From: a virus
Taxonomy: Duplodnaviria; Heunggongvirae; Uroviricota; Caudoviricetes
Virus record (IMG/VR): IMGVR_UViG_2675903654_000011
DNA: 9,245 bases
Direction: 5' to 3' (one strand)
Below are positions 1 to 9,245 of the stretch, piece by piece. Each line of letters opens with the position of its first letter. Position 1 is the stretch's first letter. Below the pieces are notes generated by a model. It was not told the origin of the DNA, searched no databases, and saw only the letters and a list, made by a program, of their open reading frames with translations. A program made the translations under genes and the position numbers.

Positions 1-504
1 ACGATTGAACAACGCGGACCACAAACGGCTGATGAGCTGGCTACATTGTTTGATACCACATCACGCAAAGTGTCTTCAACGCTGGCAATGGCAATCAGCA
101 AAGGTCGTCTGATTCGCGTAAATCAGGGCGGTAAATTTCGTTACTGCATACCGGGCGATAATTTACCAGCAGAGCCGAAAGCAGCATCGGTAGCGGAAAC
201 TGATGGTAAAGCCTTTCCTCAGCCTGCATGTGTTGCGTTACCAGTACAGGAAGCTGCAACACAGGAAGATATTAAAACAGAAACGATGGCGGACATTGTG
301 CAGTCGCTGCCATCGTTTACTGCAACGCGATCTGATGATTTGATTTTGCCATCGCTGCATTTGGCAAACCGCGAACTGCGTCGGGCGAAAAATCATGTCC
401 AGAAGTGGGAGCGTGTCTGCGCCGCGCTGCGTGAGTTGAACAAGCACAGGGATATTGTACGACAGATTACTGATTCTTCCCGCCATGTTGCATCGGAAAA
501 GTGA
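1..504 (+). CDS. Hypothetical prophage protein, 5' end lies outside the window (frame is open from nt 1); possible winged-helix-like segment
   Basis: Frame 1 has no stop from nt 1 to the TGA at 502-504, so the ORF-track start at 46 is only the first in-window Met. The next gene follows immediately with its own RBS. Confidence 0.55.
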
Positions 505-519
505 TTGCCGGAGGCGCTT

Positions 520-912
520 ATGGCAAAAGTATTTACACAAGAAGAGCGGGAAGAAGTGAAGGCGCGCATTGTGGAATTCGTGCGCCTGAGCGGACGAGAA
601 ACTTTTCGACAACTGGCAGATAAAACGGGTGTCAGTAAGACCGCTATTCGTCGTTTATCTGGTGCGCTTGCGGCCAGTGGTGATGTCTGGCTCTCTGGTT
701 GCGGGGTATTTCCATCAGAGCAGGCGTATCGCGTATGGCGTAAGACACCGGAGAAGGCTGCTGACCCGACACTGATTCGAAAGTTACCTGACGGAGAAAT
801 ACGTCGTTACAACAGACGGCAGAACATAATTTGTCGTGAGTGCCGCCAGAGCGAAGTTATGCAGCGTGTGCTGGCGTTCTATCGGGGAAACTTTCAGGAG
901 GTGATGTTGTGA
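520..912 (+). CDS. Helix-turn-helix protein of unknown function
   Basis: ATG at 520 sits 5 nt after GGAGG (510-514); the track's TTG at 505 is probably not the real start. The segment ETFRQLADKTGVSKTAIRRL looks like a classic HTH. The stop overlaps the start of the next gene. Confidence 0.6.
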   Translation: MAKVFTQEEREEVKARIVEFVRLSGRETFRQLADKTGVSKTAIRRLSGALAASGDVWLSGCGVFPSEQAYRVWRKTPEKAADPTLIRKLPDGEIRRYNRRQNIICRECRQSEVMQRVLAFYRGNFQEVML

Positions 913-1382
913 GTGAGTCGGCTACCATTCTCGACATGTGCTGTGGCAGTCGCATGTTCTGGTTTGATAAGAATGACGAACGGGCGATATTTAGCGATAT
1001 CAGAAAAGAAGAGCACACATTGTGTGATGGACGACGCCTGATTATCAGTCCTGACCTGATAGCAGATTTTCGAGCATTACCATTTGCAGACGCATCGTTT
1101 CCGGTTGTTGTATTCGACCCTCCGCATCTTGAGCGTGTTGGTGATAACGCCTGGATGGGAAAGAAATATGGACGGCTGAATAAAGATACCTGGCGAGATG
1201 ATTTGCGGCAGGGATTTAAAGAAGCCTTTCGTGTGTTGTGCCCACGCGGCGTTCTGATTTTTAAATGGAATGAAACGCAAATACCTGTTCGCCAGATATT
1301 GGTACTGACCGACAGAAAACCTGTTATCGGTCAACGAACAGGAAAAAACGATAAAACCCACTGGATTATTTTTATGAAATAG
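909..1382 (+). CDS. Small SAM-dependent (DNA) methyltransferase-like protein, probable orphan phage methylase
   Basis: GTG at 909 is preceded by AGGAGGT (895-901) and overlaps the upstream stop (GTGA). The protein carries ILDMCCGS (glycine-rich, motif I-like) and VVFDPPHL (DPPH, a variant of the (D/N/S)PP(Y/F/W/H) catalytic motif of amino-methyltransferases). The track's start at 840 would overlap the upstream gene in another frame and is judged too far upstream. Confidence 0.5.
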   Translation: MSESATILDMCCGSRMFWFDKNDERAIFSDIRKEEHTLCDGRRLIISPDLIADFRALPFADASFPVVVFDPPHLERVGDNAWMGKKYGRLNKDTWRDDLRQGFKEAFRVLCPRGVLIFKWNETQIPVRQILVLTDRKPVIGQRTGKNDKTHWIIFMK

Positions 1383-1630
1383 GCATCCAGTGAGTAGGTT
1401 CGTAAGGTTACAGATGCGTATATCTGAATAATTAAATTCAGTTCTGTAAATAAAATTTAATCCTTAACCGGAGGGATTCCTGCACCCTCAGAACATCAGG
1501 AGACCGCCCGAAAGGGCGGTAATGAAAAATGGCTGAATGAACCAAATGGCTACAAAACACGATTACCGGAATTGAAACGGTAGTAGACGATAAATCGTTT
1601 GTATGTGATGAAATAGTATTCAAAATCGAT

Positions 1631-1996
1631 GTGGTTAAAAACGTACTTACCGCATTTAAAGTCGCGCTGGTATCGCTGGAAGCCGAACCGGTGACATGGC
1701 GATATCGCTACGTGAGAAAAGGCGTTACGAACTTTCAGGAGAAGCCGTGGGTTGGTGACTGGAAATATGTACCGACAAAAGAGGATTGCAACGACAGGCC
1801 GAACTATGAAATTCAGGCGTTATTCACGGCCCAGCCTGTGCCACTGACACCCGAAGGATTGATTAAAGCGGTGCGCTTCTATGAACAGGTTAAGAGTGAA
1901 AATCCGCCAGTCGAAACCGGAGCATGGAAAGACGCTGTTGACTGGGTGCTCAAAGAGGCTTGTCAGGCTGTAAACATTGGCATCAAAGGAGAGTGA
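1631..1996 (+). CDS. Hypothetical prophage protein (121 aa)
   Basis: Long + strand ORF in the gene-dense early region. GTG start has no clear RBS, so the start is uncertain. It shares an N-terminal motif (VALVSLEAEPV) with the next large gene (IALASLEADPV). Confidence 0.45.
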   Translation: MVKNVLTAFKVALVSLEAEPVTWRYRYVRKGVTNFQEKPWVGDWKYVPTKEDCNDRPNYEIQALFTAQPVPLTPEGLIKAVRFYEQVKSENPPVETGAWKDAVDWVLKEACQAVNIGIKGE

Positions 1997-1997
1997 G

Positions 1998-2189
1998 ATG
2001 AACGGACAAATCTCAATTGTTCGACCGGGAGCATGTGACGATTGCGAGATACGAATGATTATTCGTCTGGCGATGGGGAAAACAATAACTGCTCTCATTA
2101 CTCCAGAAAATCTCGCATTAGCATTAACAGGAAAGTCAGACCTGCCAGTAGAGCTAAAGCTGCGAAATGTTGAGATTAAGGTGAAATAG
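1998..2189 (+). CDS. Hypothetical small protein (63 aa)
   Basis: ATG at 1998 is preceded by AAGGAG (1985-1990) and lies 2 nt after the upstream stop; it ends 2 nt before the next ATG, a tightly packed operon arrangement. The ORF track places the start at 1977. Confidence 0.45.
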   Translation: MNGQISIVRPGACDDCEIRMIIRLAMGKTITALITPENLALALTGKSDLPVELKLRNVEIKVK

Positions 2190-2191
2190 CT

Positions 2192-3613
2192 ATGACCACT
2201 ATTACCAAAGAGCGACTGCTGACAATCAAGCAGTGGCGCGAAACATACGGACCTGGTAGCAACGTTGTACTGCCAGCAGAAGAAGCGGAAGAACTGGCAC
2301 GGATTGCACTGGCATCATTGGAAGCAGATCCAGTTAAACGAGTTAACTCAGATCAGATGCACCGAGTCTGCTTAGAAGCTAATCGCTATTTAGATAAATA
2401 TGACGCGATGGCGAAAGAGGTAAATAAGTTGCTTGGACGCATCGCCCCGCCAGCGCCAGTATTTAACGGCGAATACGGTGACGCATATCAGGGCGCTCGT
2501 GAAGACCTGTCCATCTGGAAACGGCGAGCGCTTGAAGCTGATGAGCACGTTCGGCGACTGGAGCAAATCAATGACCACATGGTGAAAGAGGCGCAGGGAG
2601 AATCACGCATGGGCGAGCCTGTAATACGTGAGCCAGCACCGGTAGTGCCTGAAGAAGCAACTCCGGAAAACGTAGAAATGCTCTCTGGCTATGTTTCAAC
2701 GTACAAATTAACCGATAGCGAGCGCGATATTGCTGCCGAAATATGGAACGCCTGCCGCGCCGCCATGCTTCAGTCAGGAAACTTTCGGGAAAACAAGAAT
2801 TCGTCAACCAATAATTTTCGGGAAATCGAGGAAACGTCAACCAACTATCCGGCAATTCCTAGTGAGGTGTTGTCCGCAATCCTGAAGGTTGCCAGGATTC
2901 GTGCCGATTTCGATGATTTTGACGGTGACAGGCGAGGTATCGGTGATTGTCTGGATGAGGCTGAGCAAGAGCTTATCGTTACCATTAACAAATATGCCAG
3001 TCAGTTGGCAGCAGAACCGATAGCGACTAATGACGTTCGAGAGCAGCAGACAGCCGTTCCGCCAGTTCCGGAAATACAGGCTGATGTCGCGCAAGCAATT
3101 GAAAATCTCAAGCAGAAGCTAGTGGAATGTAATCGCTATAACTACTGCGCAGATGCAGTTAAAGGCGTAGAGGATGCCTGCCGTGCTGTTAGCTATAGCC
3201 AAGCCGACAATCAACCAGCATCTGGCAACCAGGCTGCCGAATCCAATCGCGGTAATGAGTGGACCGGCAATCCTGATATTGATAACGCCATCATCATGCT
3301 CGACCGCATAGATACGCTGGAAAATTGCGATGATGACCGTATTGAGGCTGTTAAGGCTGTTTTGCGTAGACTGGCTGGCAACTATCCGGTAACTCCGGAT
3401 GGTTGGATAAGCTGTAGTGAGCGAATGCCGAATACCAAAACAGCCGTTCTTGTTGCCGTGGAGTTTGACAGGAAAGGTGACTGGCGAATGAAATGGGCTA
3501 CTTACATCCCGGGGCATCCTGACGCTAATGATGGGTGGATAATTCCTGGTGCGTCGTGGAAACCGTCACACTGGATGCCGCTACCAGAACCGCCGCAGGA
3601 GGTGCGCCAATGA
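2192..3613 (+). CDS. Prophage protein with C-terminal DUF551-like domain (473 aa), function unknown
   Basis: The C-terminus (DGWISCSERMPNTKTAVLVAV...WKPSHWMPLPEPPQ) matches the recalled W...VLV...HWMPLPEPP signature of DUF551 tails in lambdoid early-region proteins. The central part is acidic and low in complexity. Confidence 0.7.
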   Translation: MTTITKERLLTIKQWRETYGPGSNVVLPAEEAEELARIALASLEADPVKRVNSDQMHRVCLEANRYLDKYDAMAKEVNKLLGRIAPPAPVFNGEYGDAYQGAREDLSIWKRRALEADEHVRRLEQINDHMVKEAQGESRMGEPVIREPAPVVPEEATPENVEMLSGYVSTYKLTDSERDIAAEIWNACRAAMLQSGNFRENKNSSTNNFREIEETSTNYPAIPSEVLSAILKVARIRADFDDFDGDRRGIGDCLDEAEQELIVTINKYASQLAAEPIATNDVREQQTAVPPVPEIQADVAQAIENLKQKLVECNRYNYCADAVKGVEDACRAVSYSQADNQPASGNQAAESNRGNEWTGNPDIDNAIIMLDRIDTLENCDDDRIEAVKAVLRRLAGNYPVTPDGWISCSERMPNTKTAVLVAVEFDRKGDWRMKWATYIPGHPDANDGWIIPGASWKPSHWMPLPEPPQEVRQ

Positions 3614-3693
3614 TCTGGCCTGAAGCCTTTGCAATTACAGGCGTTGCTATAGCTATTGATTTTTTAGTATATGTTATTTGTCGGTGGGGGTAA
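3610..3693 (+). CDS. Candidate small hydrophobic peptide (27 aa: MIWPEAFAITGVAIAIDFLVYVICRWG), not in the ORF track
   Basis: ATG at 3610-3612 overlaps the upstream TGA (ATGA coupling) and follows GGAGGT (3596-3601). The product has a single predicted transmembrane helix. Confidence 0.35.
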   Translation: MIWPEAFAITGVAIAIDFLVYVICRWG

Positions 3694-3728
3694 AAACGTT
3701 CGCCGGGATTCACACCAAAGGAGGGAAT

Positions 3729-3833
3729 ATGTCGGATGATATTTCACTGGCAATGGAAGGTGCGCTGGCTGTTATTGCTGTTGTGGGCGTTTACTGCCTG
3801 GTTGTGTTTTTGATGGATCGACTAGGGAACTGA
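3729..3833 (+). CDS. Candidate small membrane peptide (34 aa: MSDDISLAMEGALAVIAVVGVYCLVVFLMDRLGN), not in the ORF track
   Basis: Strong Shine-Dalgarno AAGGAGGG (3717-3724) lies 4 nt before the ATG. An acidic N-terminus is followed by one hydrophobic helix. A 22-bp perfect palindrome lies just downstream. Confidence 0.45.
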   Translation: MSDDISLAMEGALAVIAVVGVYCLVVFLMDRLGN

Positions 3834-3841
3834 ATTCATTA

Positions 3842-3863
3842 CGATATGGGAATTCCCATATCG
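3842..3863. repeat. 22-bp perfect palindrome CGATATGGGAATTCCCATATCG
   Basis: Read directly from the sequence: the segment equals its own reverse complement. It sits between the small-peptide ORF and the hok leader. Confidence 0.9.
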
Positions 3864-4021
3864 GGTAAAAACGGTTTGCGGTAAAGCGAGAGTTAAGTAG
3901 AATTGCTGCGGGTGCTTGAGGCTATCTGCCTCGGGCATGCCACCGTAAGGCAGACAGAGAAAAGCCCCAGTTAACATTACGCGTCCGGCAAGACGCTTAA
4001 CATTAATCTGAGGCCATATCT

Positions 4022-4234
4022 ATGCTCTACACACGTAGGTTAGCCTCTTACGTGCCGAAAGGCAAGGAGAAGCAGGCTATGAAGCAGCAAAAGGCGATGT
4101 TAATCGCCCTGATCGTCATCTGTTTAACCGTCATAGTGACGGCACTGGTAACGAGGAAAGACCTCTGCGAGGTACGAATCCGAACCGGTCAGACGGAGGT
4201 CGCTGTCTTCGTAGACTACGAATCTGAGAAGTAA
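4022..4234 (+). CDS. mok: mok-like reading frame (in-frame 19-codon N-terminal extension of hok)
   Basis: ATG at 4022 follows GAGG (4011-4014) and reads in frame into hok. The 70-aa versus 51-aa pair matches the chromosomal mokC/hokC arrangement, where both share a stop codon. Confidence 0.5.
   Translation: MLYTRRLASYVPKGKEKQAMKQQKAMLIALIVICLTVIVTALVTRKDLCEVRIRTGQTEVAVFVDYESEK
4079..4234 (+). CDS. hok: Hok/Gef-family type I toxin (51 aa), closest to HokD/HokC as recalled
   Basis: The product MKQQKAMLIALIVICLTVIVTALVTRKDLCEVRIRTGQTEVAVFVDYESEK is near-identical to the recalled HokD (RelF) sequence. AAGGAG lies upstream, and a structured 3' region with a terminator follows. Confidence 0.85.
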   Translation: MKQQKAMLIALIVICLTVIVTALVTRKDLCEVRIRTGQTEVAVFVDYESEK

Positions 4235-4301
4235 GAGACCAGGCGGGGGAGTAATCTCCCGCCACCTCTGATGTGTCAGGCATCCTCAACGCACCCGCAC
4301 T

Positions 4302-4326
4302 AAACCCGCTTCGGCGGGTTTTTTGT
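4302..4326 (+). terminator. Rho-independent terminator of the hok transcript
   Basis: Stem CCCGC (4305-4309), loop TTCG, stem GCGGG (4314-4318), then a T-run (4319-4324). Confidence 0.7.
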
Positions 4327-4509
4327 TGCGTGCTGAATGCGCAGGGTGAAAAATAACCATATATTTGATTATATACACAACAAAAAATAAAAGTCATTGT
4401 ACCTGCACATTAAATAATCAAATATACAGCGTGAAATAAATATTTTTCAGATTAATATTTTTGTCTCTATGTGGATATAACCGTTTGTACTTATAAACTC
4501 GGAGGCATC

Positions 4510-4722
4510 GTGGAAAAAATAAAGAAACTATTTAGTTGCAAATACGCAGTCATACGTCGTGATGACCTGTCAGTTATAGTCGAAATGGATTACTTCCCTG
4601 AAACCCCAAAATCAATGATGTATCGTAATGGTCGAAAGGCAATTTTTTTACCGATGAGGGTAAGTGACATTATGGGAAATGATAAACTGCTGGATGAATT
4701 GCGAGTCAGAGCATCCTGTTAG
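4510..4722 (+). CDS. Hypothetical small protein (about 70 aa)
   Basis: GTG at 4510 sits 4 nt after GGAGG (4501-4505), in the same frame as the track ORF 4471..4722. It is the first gene after an AT-rich intergenic region, so it may lead the operon that ends with the Q-like gene. Confidence 0.4.
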   Translation: MEKIKKLFSCKYAVIRRDDLSVIVEMDYFPETPKSMMYRNGRKAIFLPMRVSDIMGNDKLLDELRVRASC

Positions 4723-4793
4723 TATTGGCATTAATTCTGGTATACTACATAACGGGCTGAACACCCATTCTACTGCGCCAGCGGAGAACTACG

Positions 4794-5393
4794 ATGGCGC
4801 ATATACAACTGGTCAAACAAACCTCTTCCGGATTACTTCTCCCGGCGACACCGGAGAGTTGCGATTTTTTGCATCAAATCAAAATAGGCGAGTGGATACA
4901 CGCAGACTTTAAGCGTGTGCGTAACTACGCATTCCACAAGCGTTTTTTCAAACTCCTGCAACTGGGATTCGATTACTGGACTCCGGTCGGTGGGGCGATC
5001 ACGCCTCGCGAACGAGAACTGCTGTCTGGTTTCGTTGATTACCTGTGCGAATCAGTTGGTCGGGAACACACGCCAGCCCTGAGTGATGCCGCAGAGCAAT
5101 ATCTGAATACAGTTGCGACACGCAGAACCCGGGATACGGCATTGTTAAAGTCGTTTGAGGCTTTTCGCGAGTGGGTAACCATTCAGGCTGGATTTTACAC
5201 CGAACATTTTTATCCGGACGGTAGCCATGGGCGTCGGGCGAAATCCATCGCTTTTGCGAATATGGACGAAACCGAGTTTCAGCAGGTTTATAAATCTGTT
5301 CTGAATGTGCTGTGGAACTGGATTCTGTTCCGTAAATTTTCCTCTCCGGAACAAGTCGAAAATGTGGCCGCGCAGCTGCTGGAGTTTGCGTAA
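4794..5393 (+). CDS. YbcN-like (DUF1367-type) prophage protein (199 aa)
   Basis: ATG at 4794 with GGAGAA upstream. The N-terminus (MAHIQLVKQTSSGLLLPATPESCDF...) resembles recalled YbcN-family proteins. It sits directly upstream of a YbcO-like gene, as in the DLP12/lambdoid nin region. The stop overlaps the next start (TAATG). Confidence 0.6.
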   Translation: MAHIQLVKQTSSGLLLPATPESCDFLHQIKIGEWIHADFKRVRNYAFHKRFFKLLQLGFDYWTPVGGAITPRERELLSGFVDYLCESVGREHTPALSDAAEQYLNTVATRRTRDTALLKSFEAFREWVTIQAGFYTEHFYPDGSHGRRAKSIAFANMDETEFQQVYKSVLNVLWNWILFRKFSSPEQVENVAAQLLEFA

Positions 5394-5683
5394 TGGTGGA
5401 TTTACGTAAAGCGGCGCGGGGGCAGATGTGCACCGTCAGAATTCCTGGCTACTGCAATCACGATCCGGAAACGTCTGTGCTGGCGCATTACCGACTGGCG
5501 GGAACGTGCGGAACAGCGATAAAGCCACACGATATGCAGGCAGCGATTGCCTGTAGCTCGTGCCACGATTTAATCGACGGGCGGGTAAAAACCGGCGATT
5601 ACACCAAAGAAGAATTACGCCTGATGCATGCAGAAGGTGTTTTTCGCACACAAGAAATCTGGAGAAAGGAGGGATATTTATGA
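5393..5683 (+). CDS. ybcO: YbcO-like putative zinc-binding nuclease (96 aa)
   Basis: The product MVDLRKAARGQMCTVRIPGYCNHDPETSVLAHYRLAG...IACSSCHD matches recalled E. coli YbcO in length, cysteine/histidine spacing and N-terminus. The start overlaps the upstream stop. Confidence 0.75.
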   Translation: MVDLRKAARGQMCTVRIPGYCNHDPETSVLAHYRLAGTCGTAIKPHDMQAAIACSSCHDLIDGRVKTGDYTKEELRLMHAEGVFRTQEIWRKEGYL

Positions 5684-6234
5684 TTTACCCAACGAATACA
5701 GGAAAAAGCGGAGAACACCTTCGTCTCACCACGCTGGAAAGTGTCTGGATTCAGGGAAAACTACGTATGTGGGGGCGCTGGTCGTATATTGGCGGCGGTA
5801 AGACGGGAAATATGTTTAACCAGTTGCTGACCTCTAAAAAGCTAACAAAAACGGCAATTAATGAGGCGCTCCGGAGGATGAAAAAAGCAGGTCTGGACAA
5901 ACCTGAACTTGAGGCTTTTTTGCGGGATATGATCAACGGCAAGCAAAAAAGCTGGCTGGTGCATTGTACTGATGCAGAGGCGTTATGCATTGATCGGGTG
6001 ATTAGTGAAGTGCTGGCAGAACACCCAGGATTGATTTGTATCCTCCGGCAAAGATATGAAGGGCGGGGGATGAGTAAGCGCAAAATGGCTGAATTGCTAA
6101 ATGATGCACACCCTGAGTGGTGTTTTCGGACGTGCTGCAGTCGGGTAGATGTATGGCTAAATCTTGCTGAATATATGCTCTATCTGCCGATGCGTGATGC
6201 ATTCTCTTCCGGGTATTTAAAAACTGTCTGTTGA
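5680..6234 (+). CDS. Q: Probable late-gene antiterminator Q (Q21/Q82-like), about 184 aa
   Basis: ATG at 5680 follows AGGAGG and overlaps the ybcO-like stop (ATGA). It is the last gene before a PR'-like promoter and a terminator roughly 80 nt downstream, and the downstream lysis gene is S21-type. The call rests on context and on a motif (LESVWIQGKLRMWGRWSY) that is recalled only loosely; the family is not confirmed. Confidence 0.5.
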   Translation: MIYPTNTGKSGEHLRLTTLESVWIQGKLRMWGRWSYIGGGKTGNMFNQLLTSKKLTKTAINEALRRMKKAGLDKPELEAFLRDMINGKQKSWLVHCTDAEALCIDRVISEVLAEHPGLICILRQRYEGRGMSKRKMAELLNDAHPEWCFRTCCSRVDVWLNLAEYMLYLPMRDAFSSGYLKTVC

Positions 6235-6260
6235 CTCAATCTGTTATCCGGGGCTATATT
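6231..6260 (+). promoter_or_regulatory. PR'-like late promoter (-35 TTGACT, 18-bp spacer, -10 TATATT)
   Basis: TTGACT at 6231-6236 overlaps the Q-like stop codon; TATATT at 6255-6260. The layout parallels lambda PR' (TTGACT/TAAATT) lying immediately after Q. Confidence 0.5.
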
Positions 6261-6322
6261 CCTCACGCGCCAGCAAAATCTGGCGTCGGGATTAGGAACC
6301 CCGGATAGAGACCGCGACAGAC

Positions 6323-6345
6323 ACACGCCGCGAGCGTGTTTTTTA
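6323..6345 (+). terminator. tR'-like rho-independent terminator
   Basis: ACACGC (6323-6328), loop CGCGA, GCGTGT (6334-6339), then TTTTTT (6340-6345). Confidence 0.65.
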
Positions 6346-6507
6346 TTGTCGTATGCACGCGCACATCTGAATTATGGTGGGGCGTATGGGGGAGCTGAAA
6401 AGCTCGCCGGTTGGTTTCCCGGTAGTTCCTAACCCTGTACGTCTCACCACCCGATGATTAGGAACCTGACGGTGGTGATGGTTTAGAAACCACCAGAGGG
6501 CGTCATT

Positions 6508-7089
6508 ATGACAACTCAAATTTCTGTTGAAACTCTCTCCCCGATCACCCATAACCAGATTCCTGTTATTACCACCGAACTTTTGGCGCAGTTGTACGGT
6601 GCTGGAGTTAAGAACATTCAAAATAACTACGCCAGAAATGCTGAGCGCTTTATTGAAGGAAAGCATTTTTTCAAAGTGGCTGGCGATGCCCTGAAAAATT
6701 TGCGGGTAGCTTTAAACTACTCACAAAATTTGCAACCATCTTTAAGAGGGTTACAAATTTCCCCGAAAGCCCGCTCCCTCATCCTCTGGACAGAACGCGG
6801 AGCAGCCCGTCATGCCAAAATGCTGGAAACCGATCAGGCGTGGGATGTGTTCGAAAAGCTGGAAGACTGCTATTTCAGACAAAAGGATCCGTCAGCGCCA
6901 GTTTCATGCCAGAAAAGTTACGACACGCGAGTTCTCTGTTATCAGAGAGGCGGTGTCACTGTTTCCACAATTCAGTTACGGGATGATGATATTGTTATTT
7001 CCCTTGAGTCATGGCTGGAACTGGCGAGAGCCAATGGTTGGTTTGTTGTTCGCAGAGATAAACTGGTGGAAAGGTTGATGCAGCTTTAA
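6508..7089 (+). CDS. ORF6N / KilA-N-like domain protein, putative antirepressor-type regulator (193 aa)
   Basis: ATG at 6508 follows AGAGGG. The N-terminal segment ITTELLAQLYGAGVKNIQNNYARNAERFIEGKHFFKV resembles the ORF6N DNA-binding domain of phage antirepressors. An intrinsic terminator follows about 100 bp downstream. Confidence 0.55.
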   Translation: MTTQISVETLSPITHNQIPVITTELLAQLYGAGVKNIQNNYARNAERFIEGKHFFKVAGDALKNLRVALNYSQNLQPSLRGLQISPKARSLILWTERGAARHAKMLETDQAWDVFEKLEDCYFRQKDPSAPVSCQKSYDTRVLCYQRGGVTVSTIQLRDDDIVISLESWLELARANGWFVVRRDKLVERLMQL

Positions 7090-7188
7090 AAAAGTTCTTG
7101 CATTTTTGCACATAAACTGCTTCAATTCCTGTTTGCTTCGCAAAGCTGTATCGCGAGGCGAAACGCAAGTTTTTTTCGCACAAGGAAG

Positions 7189-7209
7189 CCACCGGAAGGT
7201 GGTTTTTTT
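7189..7209 (+). terminator. Rho-independent terminator after the ORF6N-like gene
   Basis: CCACC (7189-7193), loop GGAA, GGTGG (7198-7202), then seven T (7203-7209). Confidence 0.6.
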
Positions 7210-7332
7210 GTGTCCGTAATATACAGCAGCGCAATAAATTCGCTGGTGGTTATTAATACCGTTCTTTCAGCTTGCTGGCTTTTTCGACAAGAGTTATTGG
7301 TATGTCACGTTAACCGGAAAGGGTAAAAAGAC

Positions 7333-7530
7333 ATGCTGAAACAGCAGGATATGACAGAAACCGCCAGAGTTGTGTTTGATGAATTAAGCGTTACCGAACC
7401 GGCGACAGTCGGGGAGATTGCGCAGAATACTTACCTTTCACGCGAACGCTGCCAGTTAATACTGACCCAGCTGGTTATGGCGGGTCTGGCAGACTATCAG
7501 TGCGGTTGTTACAGACGCATTCAGTCCTGA
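7333..7530 (+). CDS. Small protein (65 aa), possible winged-helix DNA-binding fold
   Basis: ORF with a weak RBS (AAGGG). The pattern TVGEIAQNTYLSRERCQLILTQLVMAGLA resembles small FeoC-like winged-helix proteins. This is a weak inference. Confidence 0.4.
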   Translation: MLKQQDMTETARVVFDELSVTEPATVGEIAQNTYLSRERCQLILTQLVMAGLADYQCGCYRRIQS

Positions 7531-7563
7531 AGGCTTTTTATTTGTGGTAAATGGGCGGCTGGT

Positions 7564-7571
7564 GGGGGGGG
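7564..7571. repeat. Homopolymeric G8 tract within a G-rich segment (GGGCGGCTGGTGGGGGGGGCGGC)
   Basis: Read directly from the sequence. It lies about 95 bp upstream of the AraC-family gene start. Confidence 0.9.
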
Positions 7572-7665
7572 CGGCACCTGTCAGTCCTTTGCTTATGTGT
7601 TGATGATAATTTACCTTTTGGGGCTATAATTGAGCTAACCAATTGCTAATGAAAGTAAAATTATA

Positions 7666-8379
7666 ATGGCTGTTGTCTGTTCAGTTATCATGGTTTGCTC
7701 CCCAATTAATATTTTTCTTGAAAAGGATACGTTGTCACTTAAGCCAGGCTCAGTCGTTCTGGCCACCAAATGCATCAGGGAGCTTTTCCTTATGCATTAT
7801 GGCAAAGTTAAAATTGTCGATATAAGCGAATCCGTCGTAAGTCAATATCTGGAAAGTCAGCATAAGCTGACGAGGACTCGTCTGACTGACATTCCGCTTT
7901 ACCTGTTGCTGGAACCCAACAATCCTGCGTTGGCTGCGGCTTTAATTACCAGCCAGGGATTTTCCGGAGAGGTCACGGATATGTTTCTTATGATGGCCTG
8001 CCTGTCTCTGTTTGAAACAGATGAACGGATGTCATTGTTTTTAAGTGGATGTTTATCCAGCATAAGTGCCAAAGTCAGGGCGATAATTCAGACAGATATA
8101 TCAGCAAGCTGGACGCTTGGTGCGATTGCTCTACAGTTGCATATGAGTGAGAGTTTGTTAAAGACAAAACTGAAAAATGAAGGGGGCATGTTCAGTCGCT
8201 TGTTGCTGGAAGAGCGGATGCGTGTTGCTGTAAATATGTTATGTTCCCGGCATGGATATGGACAGGCTGTAGCAGAAAAATGCGGTTATTCAAGCAGGTC
8301 CTACTTTATTTCTGTATTTCACCGCTATTATGGCTTCCCGCCAGACAGATATGTATCCAGGCAAGGGCTTGATTATTGA
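7666..8379 (+). CDS. AraC/XylS-family transcriptional regulator (prophage-encoded), up to 237 aa
   Basis: The C-terminal 100 aa (WTLGAIALQLHMSESLLKTKLKNEGGMFSRLLLEERMRVAVNML...GYSSRSYFISVFHRYYGFPPDRY) is a typical double-HTH AraC domain. The start is uncertain: ATG 7666 overlaps a TATAAT hexamer, and ATG 7690 or 7792 are alternatives. Confidence 0.8.
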   Translation: MAVVCSVIMVCSPINIFLEKDTLSLKPGSVVLATKCIRELFLMHYGKVKIVDISESVVSQYLESQHKLTRTRLTDIPLYLLLEPNNPALAAALITSQGFSGEVTDMFLMMACLSLFETDERMSLFLSGCLSSISAKVRAIIQTDISASWTLGAIALQLHMSESLLKTKLKNEGGMFSRLLLEERMRVAVNMLCSRHGYGQAVAEKCGYSSRSYFISVFHRYYGFPPDRYVSRQGLDY

Positions 8380-8407
8380 TTTTCATCTGATTATTATTTT
8401 TTGGCTC

Positions 8408-8483
8408 GGCCCTTTAGCTCAGTGGTGAGAGCGAGCGACTCATAATCGCCAGGTCGCTGGTTCAAATCCAGCAAGGGCCACCA
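8408..8483 (+). tRNA. tRNA with CAU anticodon, ileX/ileZ-like (tRNA-Ile2 if lysidine-modified, otherwise Met)
   Basis: Acceptor GGCCCTT/AAGGGCC, D-stem GCTC/GAGC, anticodon loop CTCATAA, T-loop TTCAAAT, discriminator A, encoded CCA. Closely resembles recalled E. coli ileX. Confidence 0.85.
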
Positions 8484-8484
8484 A

Positions 8485-8561
8485 CCGCCACTAGCTCATC
8501 AGGAAAGAGCGTCAACCCTTTAAGTTGAGTGTGCGAGGTTCGAGTCCCCGGTGGCGGTCCA
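8485..8561 (+). tRNA. tRNA-like gene, isotype uncertain (positional anticodon UUU with a non-canonical C33)
   Basis: Acceptor CCGCCAC/GTGGCGG, D-stem GCTC/GAGC, anticodon stem TCAAC/GTTGA with loop CCTTTAA, T-loop TTCGAGT, encoded CCA. There is one A.C mismatch in the T-stem. It lies 1 nt after the previous tRNA. Confidence 0.6.
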
Positions 8562-8563
8562 GT

Positions 8564-8639
<76 letters not shown>

Positions 8640-8642
8640 TAT

Positions 8643-8717
<75 letters not shown>

Positions 8718-8723
8718 GTTAGA

Positions 8724-8769
8724 GTCTTTCAGTCTGCGATGATGGGAAATCCCGGAGTGACTGAAAGAC
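8724..8769. repeat. Perfect 11-bp inverted repeat GTCTTTCAGTC / GACTGAAAGAC with 24-nt spacer
   Basis: Read directly from the sequence, immediately after the last tRNA. A second 14-bp inverted repeat pair follows (TTATGAATGATCGC 8777-8790 and GCGATCATTCATAA 8836-8849). Confidence 0.85.
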
Positions 8770-8924
8770 GTTTAGGTTATGAATGATCGCTTTTTTTTGC
8801 AAAATTGCTGTGCAGAAATACTAACCTTCGGGCAGGCGATCATTCATAAGCACTCTGCTTTTATTCCGATTAACTGTGGGTGGTTTGTTGGATAGAGTGC
8901 TTTCCTGACTGTAGATCCAATTTC

Positions 8925-8949
8925 GCCCGCTTTTGCGGGCTTTTCTTTT
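8925..8949 (+). terminator. Rho-independent terminator about 60 bp upstream of the holin gene
   Basis: GCCCGC (8925-8930), loop TTTT, GCGGGC (8935-8940), then TTTTCTTTT. Confidence 0.65.
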
Positions 8950-9009
8950 CAAATCCCTTTCATCTCTCAGTGTAAAACTACGCCATCCGTTATTTGCGGA
9001 GGTGAGGCT

Positions 9010-9121
9010 ATGAAATCCATGGACAAAATTTCAACGGGCATTGCCTACGGCACCTCCGCAGGCAGTGCTGGCTACTGGTTTTTACAGTGGCTTGATCAAG
9101 TCAGTCCGTCACAGTGGGCTG
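9010..9121 (+). pseudogene. S: S21-type (pinholin) holin gene, interrupted after about 37 codons by an insertion sequence
   Basis: RBS GGAGGTGAGG precedes the ATG at 9010. The product begins [37 protein letters not shown], matching the recalled phage 21 S protein including the Met1/Met4 dual-start motif. After nt 9121 the frame runs into IS terminal sequence instead of the transmembrane domains. Confidence 0.8.
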
Positions 9122-9245
9122 TGAACCGCCCCGGGTTTCCTGGAGAGTGTTTTATCTGTGAACTCAGGCTGCCAGATCATCGTTTCCGATGGAAGCATAA
9201 TAAGCTTTTTCTGCTTCTGCCGGAGGAGTATGGCCCAGCCTTCCC
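9122..9245 (-). mobile_element. Terminal inverted repeat and adjoining end of an IS3-family element (IS629/IS1203-like), running off the window edge
   Basis: The terminus TGAACCGCCCCGGGTTTCCTGGAGAG begins at 9122 and matches the recalled right end of IS629 in reverse complement. The minus strand encodes a transposase C-terminus ending at 9164. Confidence 0.75.
9164..9245 (-). CDS. IS3-family transposase OrfB, C-terminal 26 codons (partial, continues beyond the window)
   Basis: Minus-strand translation of 9245..9164 gives ...[26 protein letters not shown] followed by a stop (complement of 9164-9166), about 40 nt inside the inverted repeat, as expected for an IS3-family orfB. Confidence 0.65.

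Follow-up and report, generated by a model that had tools for sequence, protein, structure and literature searches.

The stretch of DNA analysed here (hereafter the window) is the whole of the 9245-bp contig CYFR01000107.1 from the short-read draft assembly GCA_001285905.1, and it ends 124 nt into a multicopy insertion sequence (IS) repeat. It opens with a partial DUF1627 product (1-504) and carries a complete hok/sok type I toxin-antitoxin module (3910-4234), in which sok gave an Rfam match of 112.6 bits (3910-4084) and Hok/Gef is encoded by a 51-aa open reading frame (4079-4234; Pfam E = 4e-23). Further along lie the genes of a Q-like DUF1133 protein (antiterminator; 5680-6234), an ORF6N protein of the antirepressor type (6508-7089) and an AraC-type regulator (7666-8379), and four tandem tRNA genes (8408-8717) fill the space between the AraC-like gene and a holin gene, S, at the right end of the window. 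An earlier note on this DNA, written from the letters alone, had listed regulators, tRNAs and hok as prophage cargo, and all of these were recovered in our annotation. The first tRNA (anticodon CAT) was called Met by ARAGORN and Ile by PGAP in an identical relative, and is presumably a lysidine-modified Ile2 tRNA; the other three are Lys-TTT, Thr-TGT and Gly-TCC. No stx gene is present between the tRNA genes and S in the window.

Between the Q-like DUF1133 and ORF6N genes, Rfam matches above the gathering score were obtained for isrK (6267-6344), the C4 antisense RNA (6370-6454) and the a1/b1 targets (6254-6307). Judged by these matches, the region (6254-6454) looks like an RNA-controlled module of the P1/P7 c4-ant or Gifsy isrK kind, placed in a lambdoid late-regulatory region. 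Two further observations concern differences from related records. Positions 2192-3613 form an uninterrupted 473-aa open reading frame whose only DUF551 domain lies at the C-terminus (residues 404-469), and PGAP annotates three DUF551 fragments or pseudogenes instead in NZ_CP148401.1, which is 100% identical over this segment; either the annotations disagree, or the protein has an unusual, uncharacterised N-terminal extension. Upstream of the AraC-type gene, a spacer homopolymer of eight G residues (7564-7571) corresponds to nine in CYGN01000105 (L008), which may be due to an error of sequencing or assembly or else mark a tract near a promoter that is prone to slippage.

The spacer between the tRNA genes and the holin gene contains perfect inverted repeats with 11-nt arms (8724-8734 and 8759-8769) and 14-nt arms (8777-8790 and 8836-8849), as well as a putative terminator-like GC hairpin followed by a T-run (GCCCGCTTTTGCGGGC TTTTCTTTTC; 8925-8950, plus strand) just upstream of the holin ribosome-binding site, a feature that belongs to the setting of the late transcript. 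A 10-nt inverted repeat pairs the holin Shine-Dalgarno region (8995-9004) with codons 14-17 (9051-9060), a pairing that is not used in the predicted minimum free energy fold; in that fold, a small hairpin (z = -2.2) takes in both start codons of the holin gene.

The holin remnant and the IS629 end

What remains of the holin gene (9010-9121, plus strand) comprises codons 1-37 and the first base of codon 38 of an S21-type class II holin, or pinholin. As read from the sequence, the Shine-Dalgarno motif GGAGG (8998-9002, plus strand) stands 7 nt 5' of the first ATG, and the gene starts with the dual-start motif ATG AAA TCC ATG (9010-9021, plus strand; Met1-Lys2-Ser3-Met4), its product beginning MKSMDK. 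In phage 21, Met1 gives rise to the antiholin S21-71 and Met4 to the holin S21-68 (PMC9636201). The remnant encodes the N-terminus, the first transmembrane domain (TMD1) with its YWFLQW patch, the loop LDQVSPSQ, which joins TMD1 and TMD2 in S21-68 (bioRxiv 10.1101/2021.04.20.440580), and residues W36-A37. These 37 residues alone scored 56.3 bits against Pfam PF04971, 'Bacteriophage P21 holin S' (profile positions 1-33 of 64; gathering cut-off 26 bits), the intact 71-aa holin of a relative scoring 121.5 bits, and the remnant is 100% identical to the intact 71-codon gene of NZ_CP148401.1 as far as 9121.

The earlier note had named the gene an S21-type pinholin with a normal ribosome-binding site and MKSMDK dual start, and had placed its start exactly; its statement that everything from the first transmembrane helix onward is replaced has to be rejected. 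The break follows residue 37, two residues beyond the loop LDQVSPSQ, so that TMD1 and the loop are kept, and antisense IS sequence stands in place of TMD2, the helix of the heptameric pinhole, and of the charged, cytoplasmic C-terminal tail. The intact holin has a Kyte-Doolittle peak of about 2.1 near residues 43-46, in the hydrophobic stretch of TMD2 (residues ~40-50), and no such peak appears at residues ~40-50 in the Kyte-Doolittle profile of the holin::IS fusion. Because TMD2 is both necessary and sufficient for pore formation by S21-68 (bioRxiv 10.1101/2021.04.20.440580) and has been lost here, the product of the window gene cannot form holes. The gene is almost certainly cut at the IS629 tip and non-functional.

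From exactly 9122 the window reads TGAACCGCCCCGGGTTTCCTGGAGAGTG..., and its last 124 nt (9122-9245, minus strand) are the right (IRR) end of an IS629/IS1203 element of the IS3 family, counted from its tip, the contig stopping inside the element. All 124 nt are identical to the right end (L001 4718-4841) of a 1310-bp element of E. coli Z1323CEC0019 (L001 4718-6027), a match far beyond chance. This complete copy is 100% identical over its full length to IS629 as annotated in the Stx phages VT2phi_272 and CP-1639, and PGAP labels it as an IS3-like element IS1203 family transposase with a programmed frameshift. The terminal inverted repeat IRR, TGAACCGCCCCGGGTTTCCTGGAGA (9122-9146), matches IRL, TGAACCGCCCCGGAAATCCTGGAGA, at 22 of 25 positions, as compared at both ends of the complete copies in L001 and L002, and the left end of IS629 reads ...CCAGGATTTCCGGGGCGGTTCA. 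On the minus strand, the window holds the 3' end of the transposase gene orfB (9164-9245), namely its last 26 codons and the stop codon (9166-9164); the translation from 9244 to 9164 is identical to the C-terminus encoded by the L001 transposase CDS (4760-5973). Alignment to the IS629/IS1203 reference, which the earlier note had proposed as a check, thus bears out both its IS629-like, IS3-family terminus, to the exact nucleotide (9122), and its transposase C-terminus on the minus strand.

Read on the plus strand, the 37 holin codons continue into antisense IS sequence as a chimeric reading frame (9010-9245) that is still open at the contig end. Were the IS complete, this frame is predicted to stop after 115 codons, a length obtained by splicing the L001 element onto the window and thus extending beyond the observed window sequence. 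Exact look-ups of the 78-aa and 115-aa S'::IS products in the protein collection found neither of them, a known partial control being absent from it as well.

The junction in near-identical prophages

Over positions 1-9121, the window is identical at 9120 of 9121 positions to NZ_CP148401.1 (E. coli Z1323CEC0019), the sole difference being a T at 7133 (A in the relative), in the spacer after the ORF6N gene. An identical holin-IS junction occurs in a second IMG/VR record, 2693429524_000009 (L013), whose 9020 bp correspond to window positions 213-9232 and whose contig ends are different. T7133 is common to these two records only, all other relatives, outgroups included, having A at this site. By this comparison, T7133 reads as a derived private SNP that works as a clone marker and assigns the second record to the same clone as the window. 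When the junction was searched for as a 44-mer and a 20-mer, IMG/VR returned one match, this second record, and GTDB representative genomes and JGI metagenomes returned 0; the 5,426 complete E. coli genomes searched lacked it, as did the phage collection. The junction therewith offers a clone-specific marker for strain typing. Neither microhomology nor any shared sequence was found where holin and IS meet, and the break falls exactly at the IS tip, which indicates an end made by transposase rather than by slippage or end-joining.

Beyond 9121, the alignment to NZ_CP148401.1 jumps by 295 bp to an IS629 end that lies in the same orientation within DUF1327/ydfR. The prophage of this strain is lambdoid, is integrated beside ttcA (the Rac site) and has intact intR and xisR genes. 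Its S gene is likewise intact (71 codons), and the IS interrupts codon 62 of DUF1327/ydfR. No target duplication is present at this lysis-cassette copy (flanks GAC versus ATC), and its far side runs into mid-Rz (...SSAEASSASGMGNDATVELS...); the remainder of DUF1327, the endolysin gene and about 105 Rz codons, about two thirds of the gene (intact Rz, seen in L016, has 160 aa), have already been deleted. Intact cassettes, such as those of L004 and L007, continue from the holin into DUF1327, a lysozyme with a Gly/Ala-rich, SAR-like N-terminus (L007 3280-3813) and Rz/Rz1.

The left boundary of the IS takes three forms. It reads ...CATCAGAC|TGAACC in CP148401, in AIBK01000090 (L009, L021) and in IMG 2548876950; ...CATCAG|TGAACC, 2 bp shorter, in CYGN01000105 (L008), the single Velvet-era draft contig on which this variant rests; and ...GGGCTG|TGAACC, 295 bp shorter, in the window and in IMG/VR 2693429524_000009. 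The segment missing from the last two corresponds to L001 4423-4717 (CGATTGGTG...CATCAGAC). Three nested flank endpoints (0, -2 and -295 bp) are thus found at one IS tip in prophages that are at least 99.9% identical (over up to 9.1 kb), and among them the lineage of the window is the derived one. No IS-free close relative was found, the IS-free records (L004, L007, L011 and L017) being only 97-99.6% identical in the shared region. L018, considered as a further junction variant, was rejected as an unrelated prophage with an intact DUF1327. Queries that include the IS end match the NZ_CP148401.1 chromosome at 37-40 places, depending on the search, and the majority of these are presumably ends of IS629.

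The prophage of NZ_CP148401.1 contains two inverted IS629 copies (L002 4803-6112 and 19417 onward) with their IRR ends facing inward. These bracket 13.3 kb that begin in the early region and reach the lysis cassette, with truncated genes flanking both copies, and the 13,411-bp record AIBK01000090 is exactly the segment between them. Inversion of this 13.3-kb segment by recombination between the two copies is possible. Two genes, one for a PD-(D/E)XK nuclease and one for an HTH protein, have been cut short by the early-region copy, a further sign of prophage decay in the relative.

Possible histories of the truncated cassette

Comparison of these records leads us to favour, with a probability of roughly 0.6, an IS-anchored deletion in which an IS629 copy already in place lost 295 bp of its flank, with S not resuming beyond the IS. 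The ancestor would have carried IS629 in the same orientation 295 bp further downstream, in DUF1327/ydfR and without a target duplication, and would already have lacked the endolysin gene and about 105 Rz codons on the other side of the element. A later, transposase-dependent event would then have eliminated 295 bp, so that the left boundary, until then at DUF1327 codon 62, came to lie at holin codon 37. By the simplest route, a second IS629 copy would have inserted in the same orientation at holin codon 37, duplicating CTG, and homologous recombination between the two direct copies would have removed one of them together with the 295 bp in between. Alternatively, intramolecular transposition might have led to an adjacent deletion with the same product. 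The two-step route is assumed because IS3-family transposition by copy-out-paste-in regenerates the donor and by itself deletes no donor flank (bioRxiv 10.1101/2023.06.07.543989). In EHEC, IS629 is documented as a cause of both gene inactivation and genomic deletion, and its IEE-dependent excision is accompanied by IS-adjacent deletions of a few nt to more than 40 kb (PMC9943667; bioRxiv 10.1101/2023.06.07.543989).

The argument for a deletion from a pre-existing copy is an indirect one, of phylogenetic parsimony across five or six records. Three independent insertions in the same orientation within 300 bp are improbable, and would be conceivable if the site were an IS629 hotspot. Since the three nested endpoints favour an IS-anchored deletion, the rest of S and the endolysin gene probably do not lie beyond the IS; the sequence expected there is the 3' part of Rz, joined in mid-Rz (ATCCTCAGCCGAAGCC / ATCCTCAGCCGAAGCCTCC). 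How and in which direction the 295 bp were lost, and what follows past 9245, we infer. A search of IMG/VR for the IS left end followed by ATCCTCAGCC gave one match, L014, which belongs to a genome other than that of the window. 41-mers taken from the far flank of the CP148401 type likewise matched no contig of genome 2693429524, a result that speaks for neither side.

The same window sequence is predicted by a history that stops one step earlier, with the second IS629 copy in holin codon 37 (CTG duplicated) and the older copy still in place 295 bp downstream in DUF1327. The order would then be IS, a holin frame resuming for 34 codons, the DUF1327 remnant and the older IS, again with no endolysin. 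Such a state is the obligatory intermediate of the insertion and recombination route, and it fits both the phylogenetic nesting and the high IS629 load of the relative. It would, however, place two 1.3-kb direct repeats 295 bp apart, an arrangement that on general knowledge is recombinationally unstable. Moreover, the 103-aa DUF1327'::IS product expected from its inter-IS contig of about 546 bp was not in the protein collection, although an 80-aa control of the L009 type also went unfound there. Likewise, no IMG/VR contig of genome 2693429524 carried a 41-mer of the missing 295-bp segment, with the qualification that so short a contig would escape viral calling. On balance we regard persistence of both copies as unlikely, if still worth keeping in mind.

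A more ambitious version of the deletion history holds that the IRR end is a recurrent generator of deletions, having produced the 0, -2 and -295 bp endpoints in turn, and that the 295-bp step was selected for removing a lethal orphan pinholin. If true, this would amount to a stepwise, IS-driven detoxification of a defective prophage; we consider it quite doubtful.

The earlier note had read the locus as a holin gene disrupted by an insertion. That an IS629 end cuts the gene at 9122 stands; that it did so as a fresh simple insertion is doubtful, as near-identical relatives carry the IS end 295 or 293 bp downstream. A simple insertion into an intact cassette would have left a 3-bp target site duplication (TSD), with the rest of S, DUF1327, the SAR endolysin gene and Rz/Rz1 following the element. 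The break exactly at the IS tip agrees with this, intact cassettes of the same type exist (L004, L007), and related cassettes have received such insertions from IS629 and IS2. In EPSSH018 (NZ_CP125889.1), IS2 has entered the same S21-type holin at codon ~33 (L024 1556-3107; 5-bp TSD GTCCG), 13 bp upstream of the position of the window breakpoint, and an IS629-like element (97.6% identical) lies in ydfR (L024 3413-4722; 3-bp TSD TAC), 300 bp downstream of IS2; in 14EC007, an IS lies inside the Qin lysozyme gene. Yet in all records with at least 99.9% identity to the window, DUF1327 already contains the IS, and none retains the endolysin gene where the far side is visible, so that a simple insertion would need an unsampled IS-free ancestor and two or three independent hits in the same orientation within 300 bp. 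The far junction that it predicts, GGTTCA-CTG-CGATTGG (the IS left end, CTG and the rest of S, CTGCGATTGGTGTACTGG), had 0 matches in IMG/VR, and the absence of the window junction from all 5,426 complete E. coli genomes also speaks against it. We therefore judge a fresh simple insertion to be very unlikely.

Finally, an assembly artefact, in which a chimeric contig end joins the holin to a repeated IS end, was rejected as extremely improbable: the contig is a short-read draft that ends inside a multicopy repeat, and contig ends are its least reliable part, but the join falls at the biological IS tip, no k-mer is common to the holin and IS sides, so that a de Bruijn assembler cannot make it without spanning reads, and an independently stored record of other length (9020 versus 9245 bp) and other contig ends has the same junction together with T7133.

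Consequences for lysis and comparison with known systems

With its holin truncated before TMD2, the window prophage cannot carry out pinholin-triggered, holin-dependent lysis. The loss of the holin had been proposed as what makes this prophage lysis-defective. The defect itself is borne out, TMD2 being lost and with it the pore, whereas the holin is a doubtful cause: given that the sister lineage already lacks the endolysin gene and about two thirds of Rz, the truncation is probably a secondary lesion, and if the favoured history is right, the lysis defect arose earlier, through those losses. Nor does it follow that the prophage is locked in, as had also been suggested, because excision needs no lysis genes and the relative retains intact int and xis. 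On its own, a pinholin dissipates the proton motive force, so that it kills the cell even when no endolysin is made (for the pathway, see PMC9636201); loss of TMD2 from such an orphan pinholin could for this reason have been favoured by selection. More speculatively, a TMD1-only product, made from the Met1 and Met4 starts behind the intact ribosome-binding site, might serve as a trans-acting antiholin that counters S21-type pinholins encoded by other lambdoid prophages in the same cell; TMD1 was reportedly found to inhibit TMD2 (Park and colleagues, 2006).

Taken as a whole, the event is one of ordinary prophage decay, in which both components and the kind of event were already known, and it has little importance beyond annotation. 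It does carry a caution, namely that where a gene stops at an IS tip at the end of a contig, a simple insertion should not be assumed. Near-identical relatives point to a lysis cassette eroded step by step from an IS anchor, in which the endolysin gene and Rz went first, followed by 2 bp and then by 295 bp reaching into S.

Of the known systems, the S21 pinholin/antiholin of phage 21 resembles the window remnant in the MKSM dual start, the aromatic patch YWFLQW, the loop LDQVSPSQ and the match to PF04971. Unlike it, the window copy is without TMD2 and the C-terminal tail, and no partner endolysin is visible. IS629 (also IS1203 or IS1203v) of EHEC O157 prophages has the same TGAACCGCCCCGG inverted repeats as those found at the window boundary. 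The complete copy of the relative has orfA and orfB with a programmed frameshift, and simple insertions of IS629 give a 3-bp TSD; in contrast, the window holds the tip only (124 nt), and no TSD flanks the sister copy. The presence of IS629 in prophage late regions, which the earlier note had called a known route to prophage domestication, is indeed a familiar theme: position polymorphisms of IS629 inside O157 prophages are well documented (PMC3271280; PMC10810198, for example PA2 versus PA8), and the element also resides in Stx phages.

Recurrent IS erosion of lambdoid lysis modules, as in the window, is likewise seen in the holin::IS2 cassette of EPSSH018 and in cryptic lysis cassettes of the K-12 type (essD-ydfR-rrrQ-type). 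The EPSSH018 cassette shows simple insertions with TSDs and has kept both gene halves, the lysozyme gene and Rz, whereas the window lineage shows an apparent loss of flanking sequence. A parallel may also be drawn with the IS629/IEE deletions of EHEC, where one endpoint is fixed at the end of an IS3-family element and the other varies, as appears to be so here (by 2 bp and 295 bp). Those deletions are described together with the element's excision; in the window its end is still present, and the mechanism is a proposed one. Variable flank endpoints at a fixed IS end are also said to have been described by Cooper et al. in 2001 for the IS150-anchored rbs deletions of the E. coli long-term evolution experiment. 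The nested endpoints reported here add a minor case from nature in which an IS629 end persists and its flank has apparently been lost, and which can be compared with models of IEE-dependent deletion.
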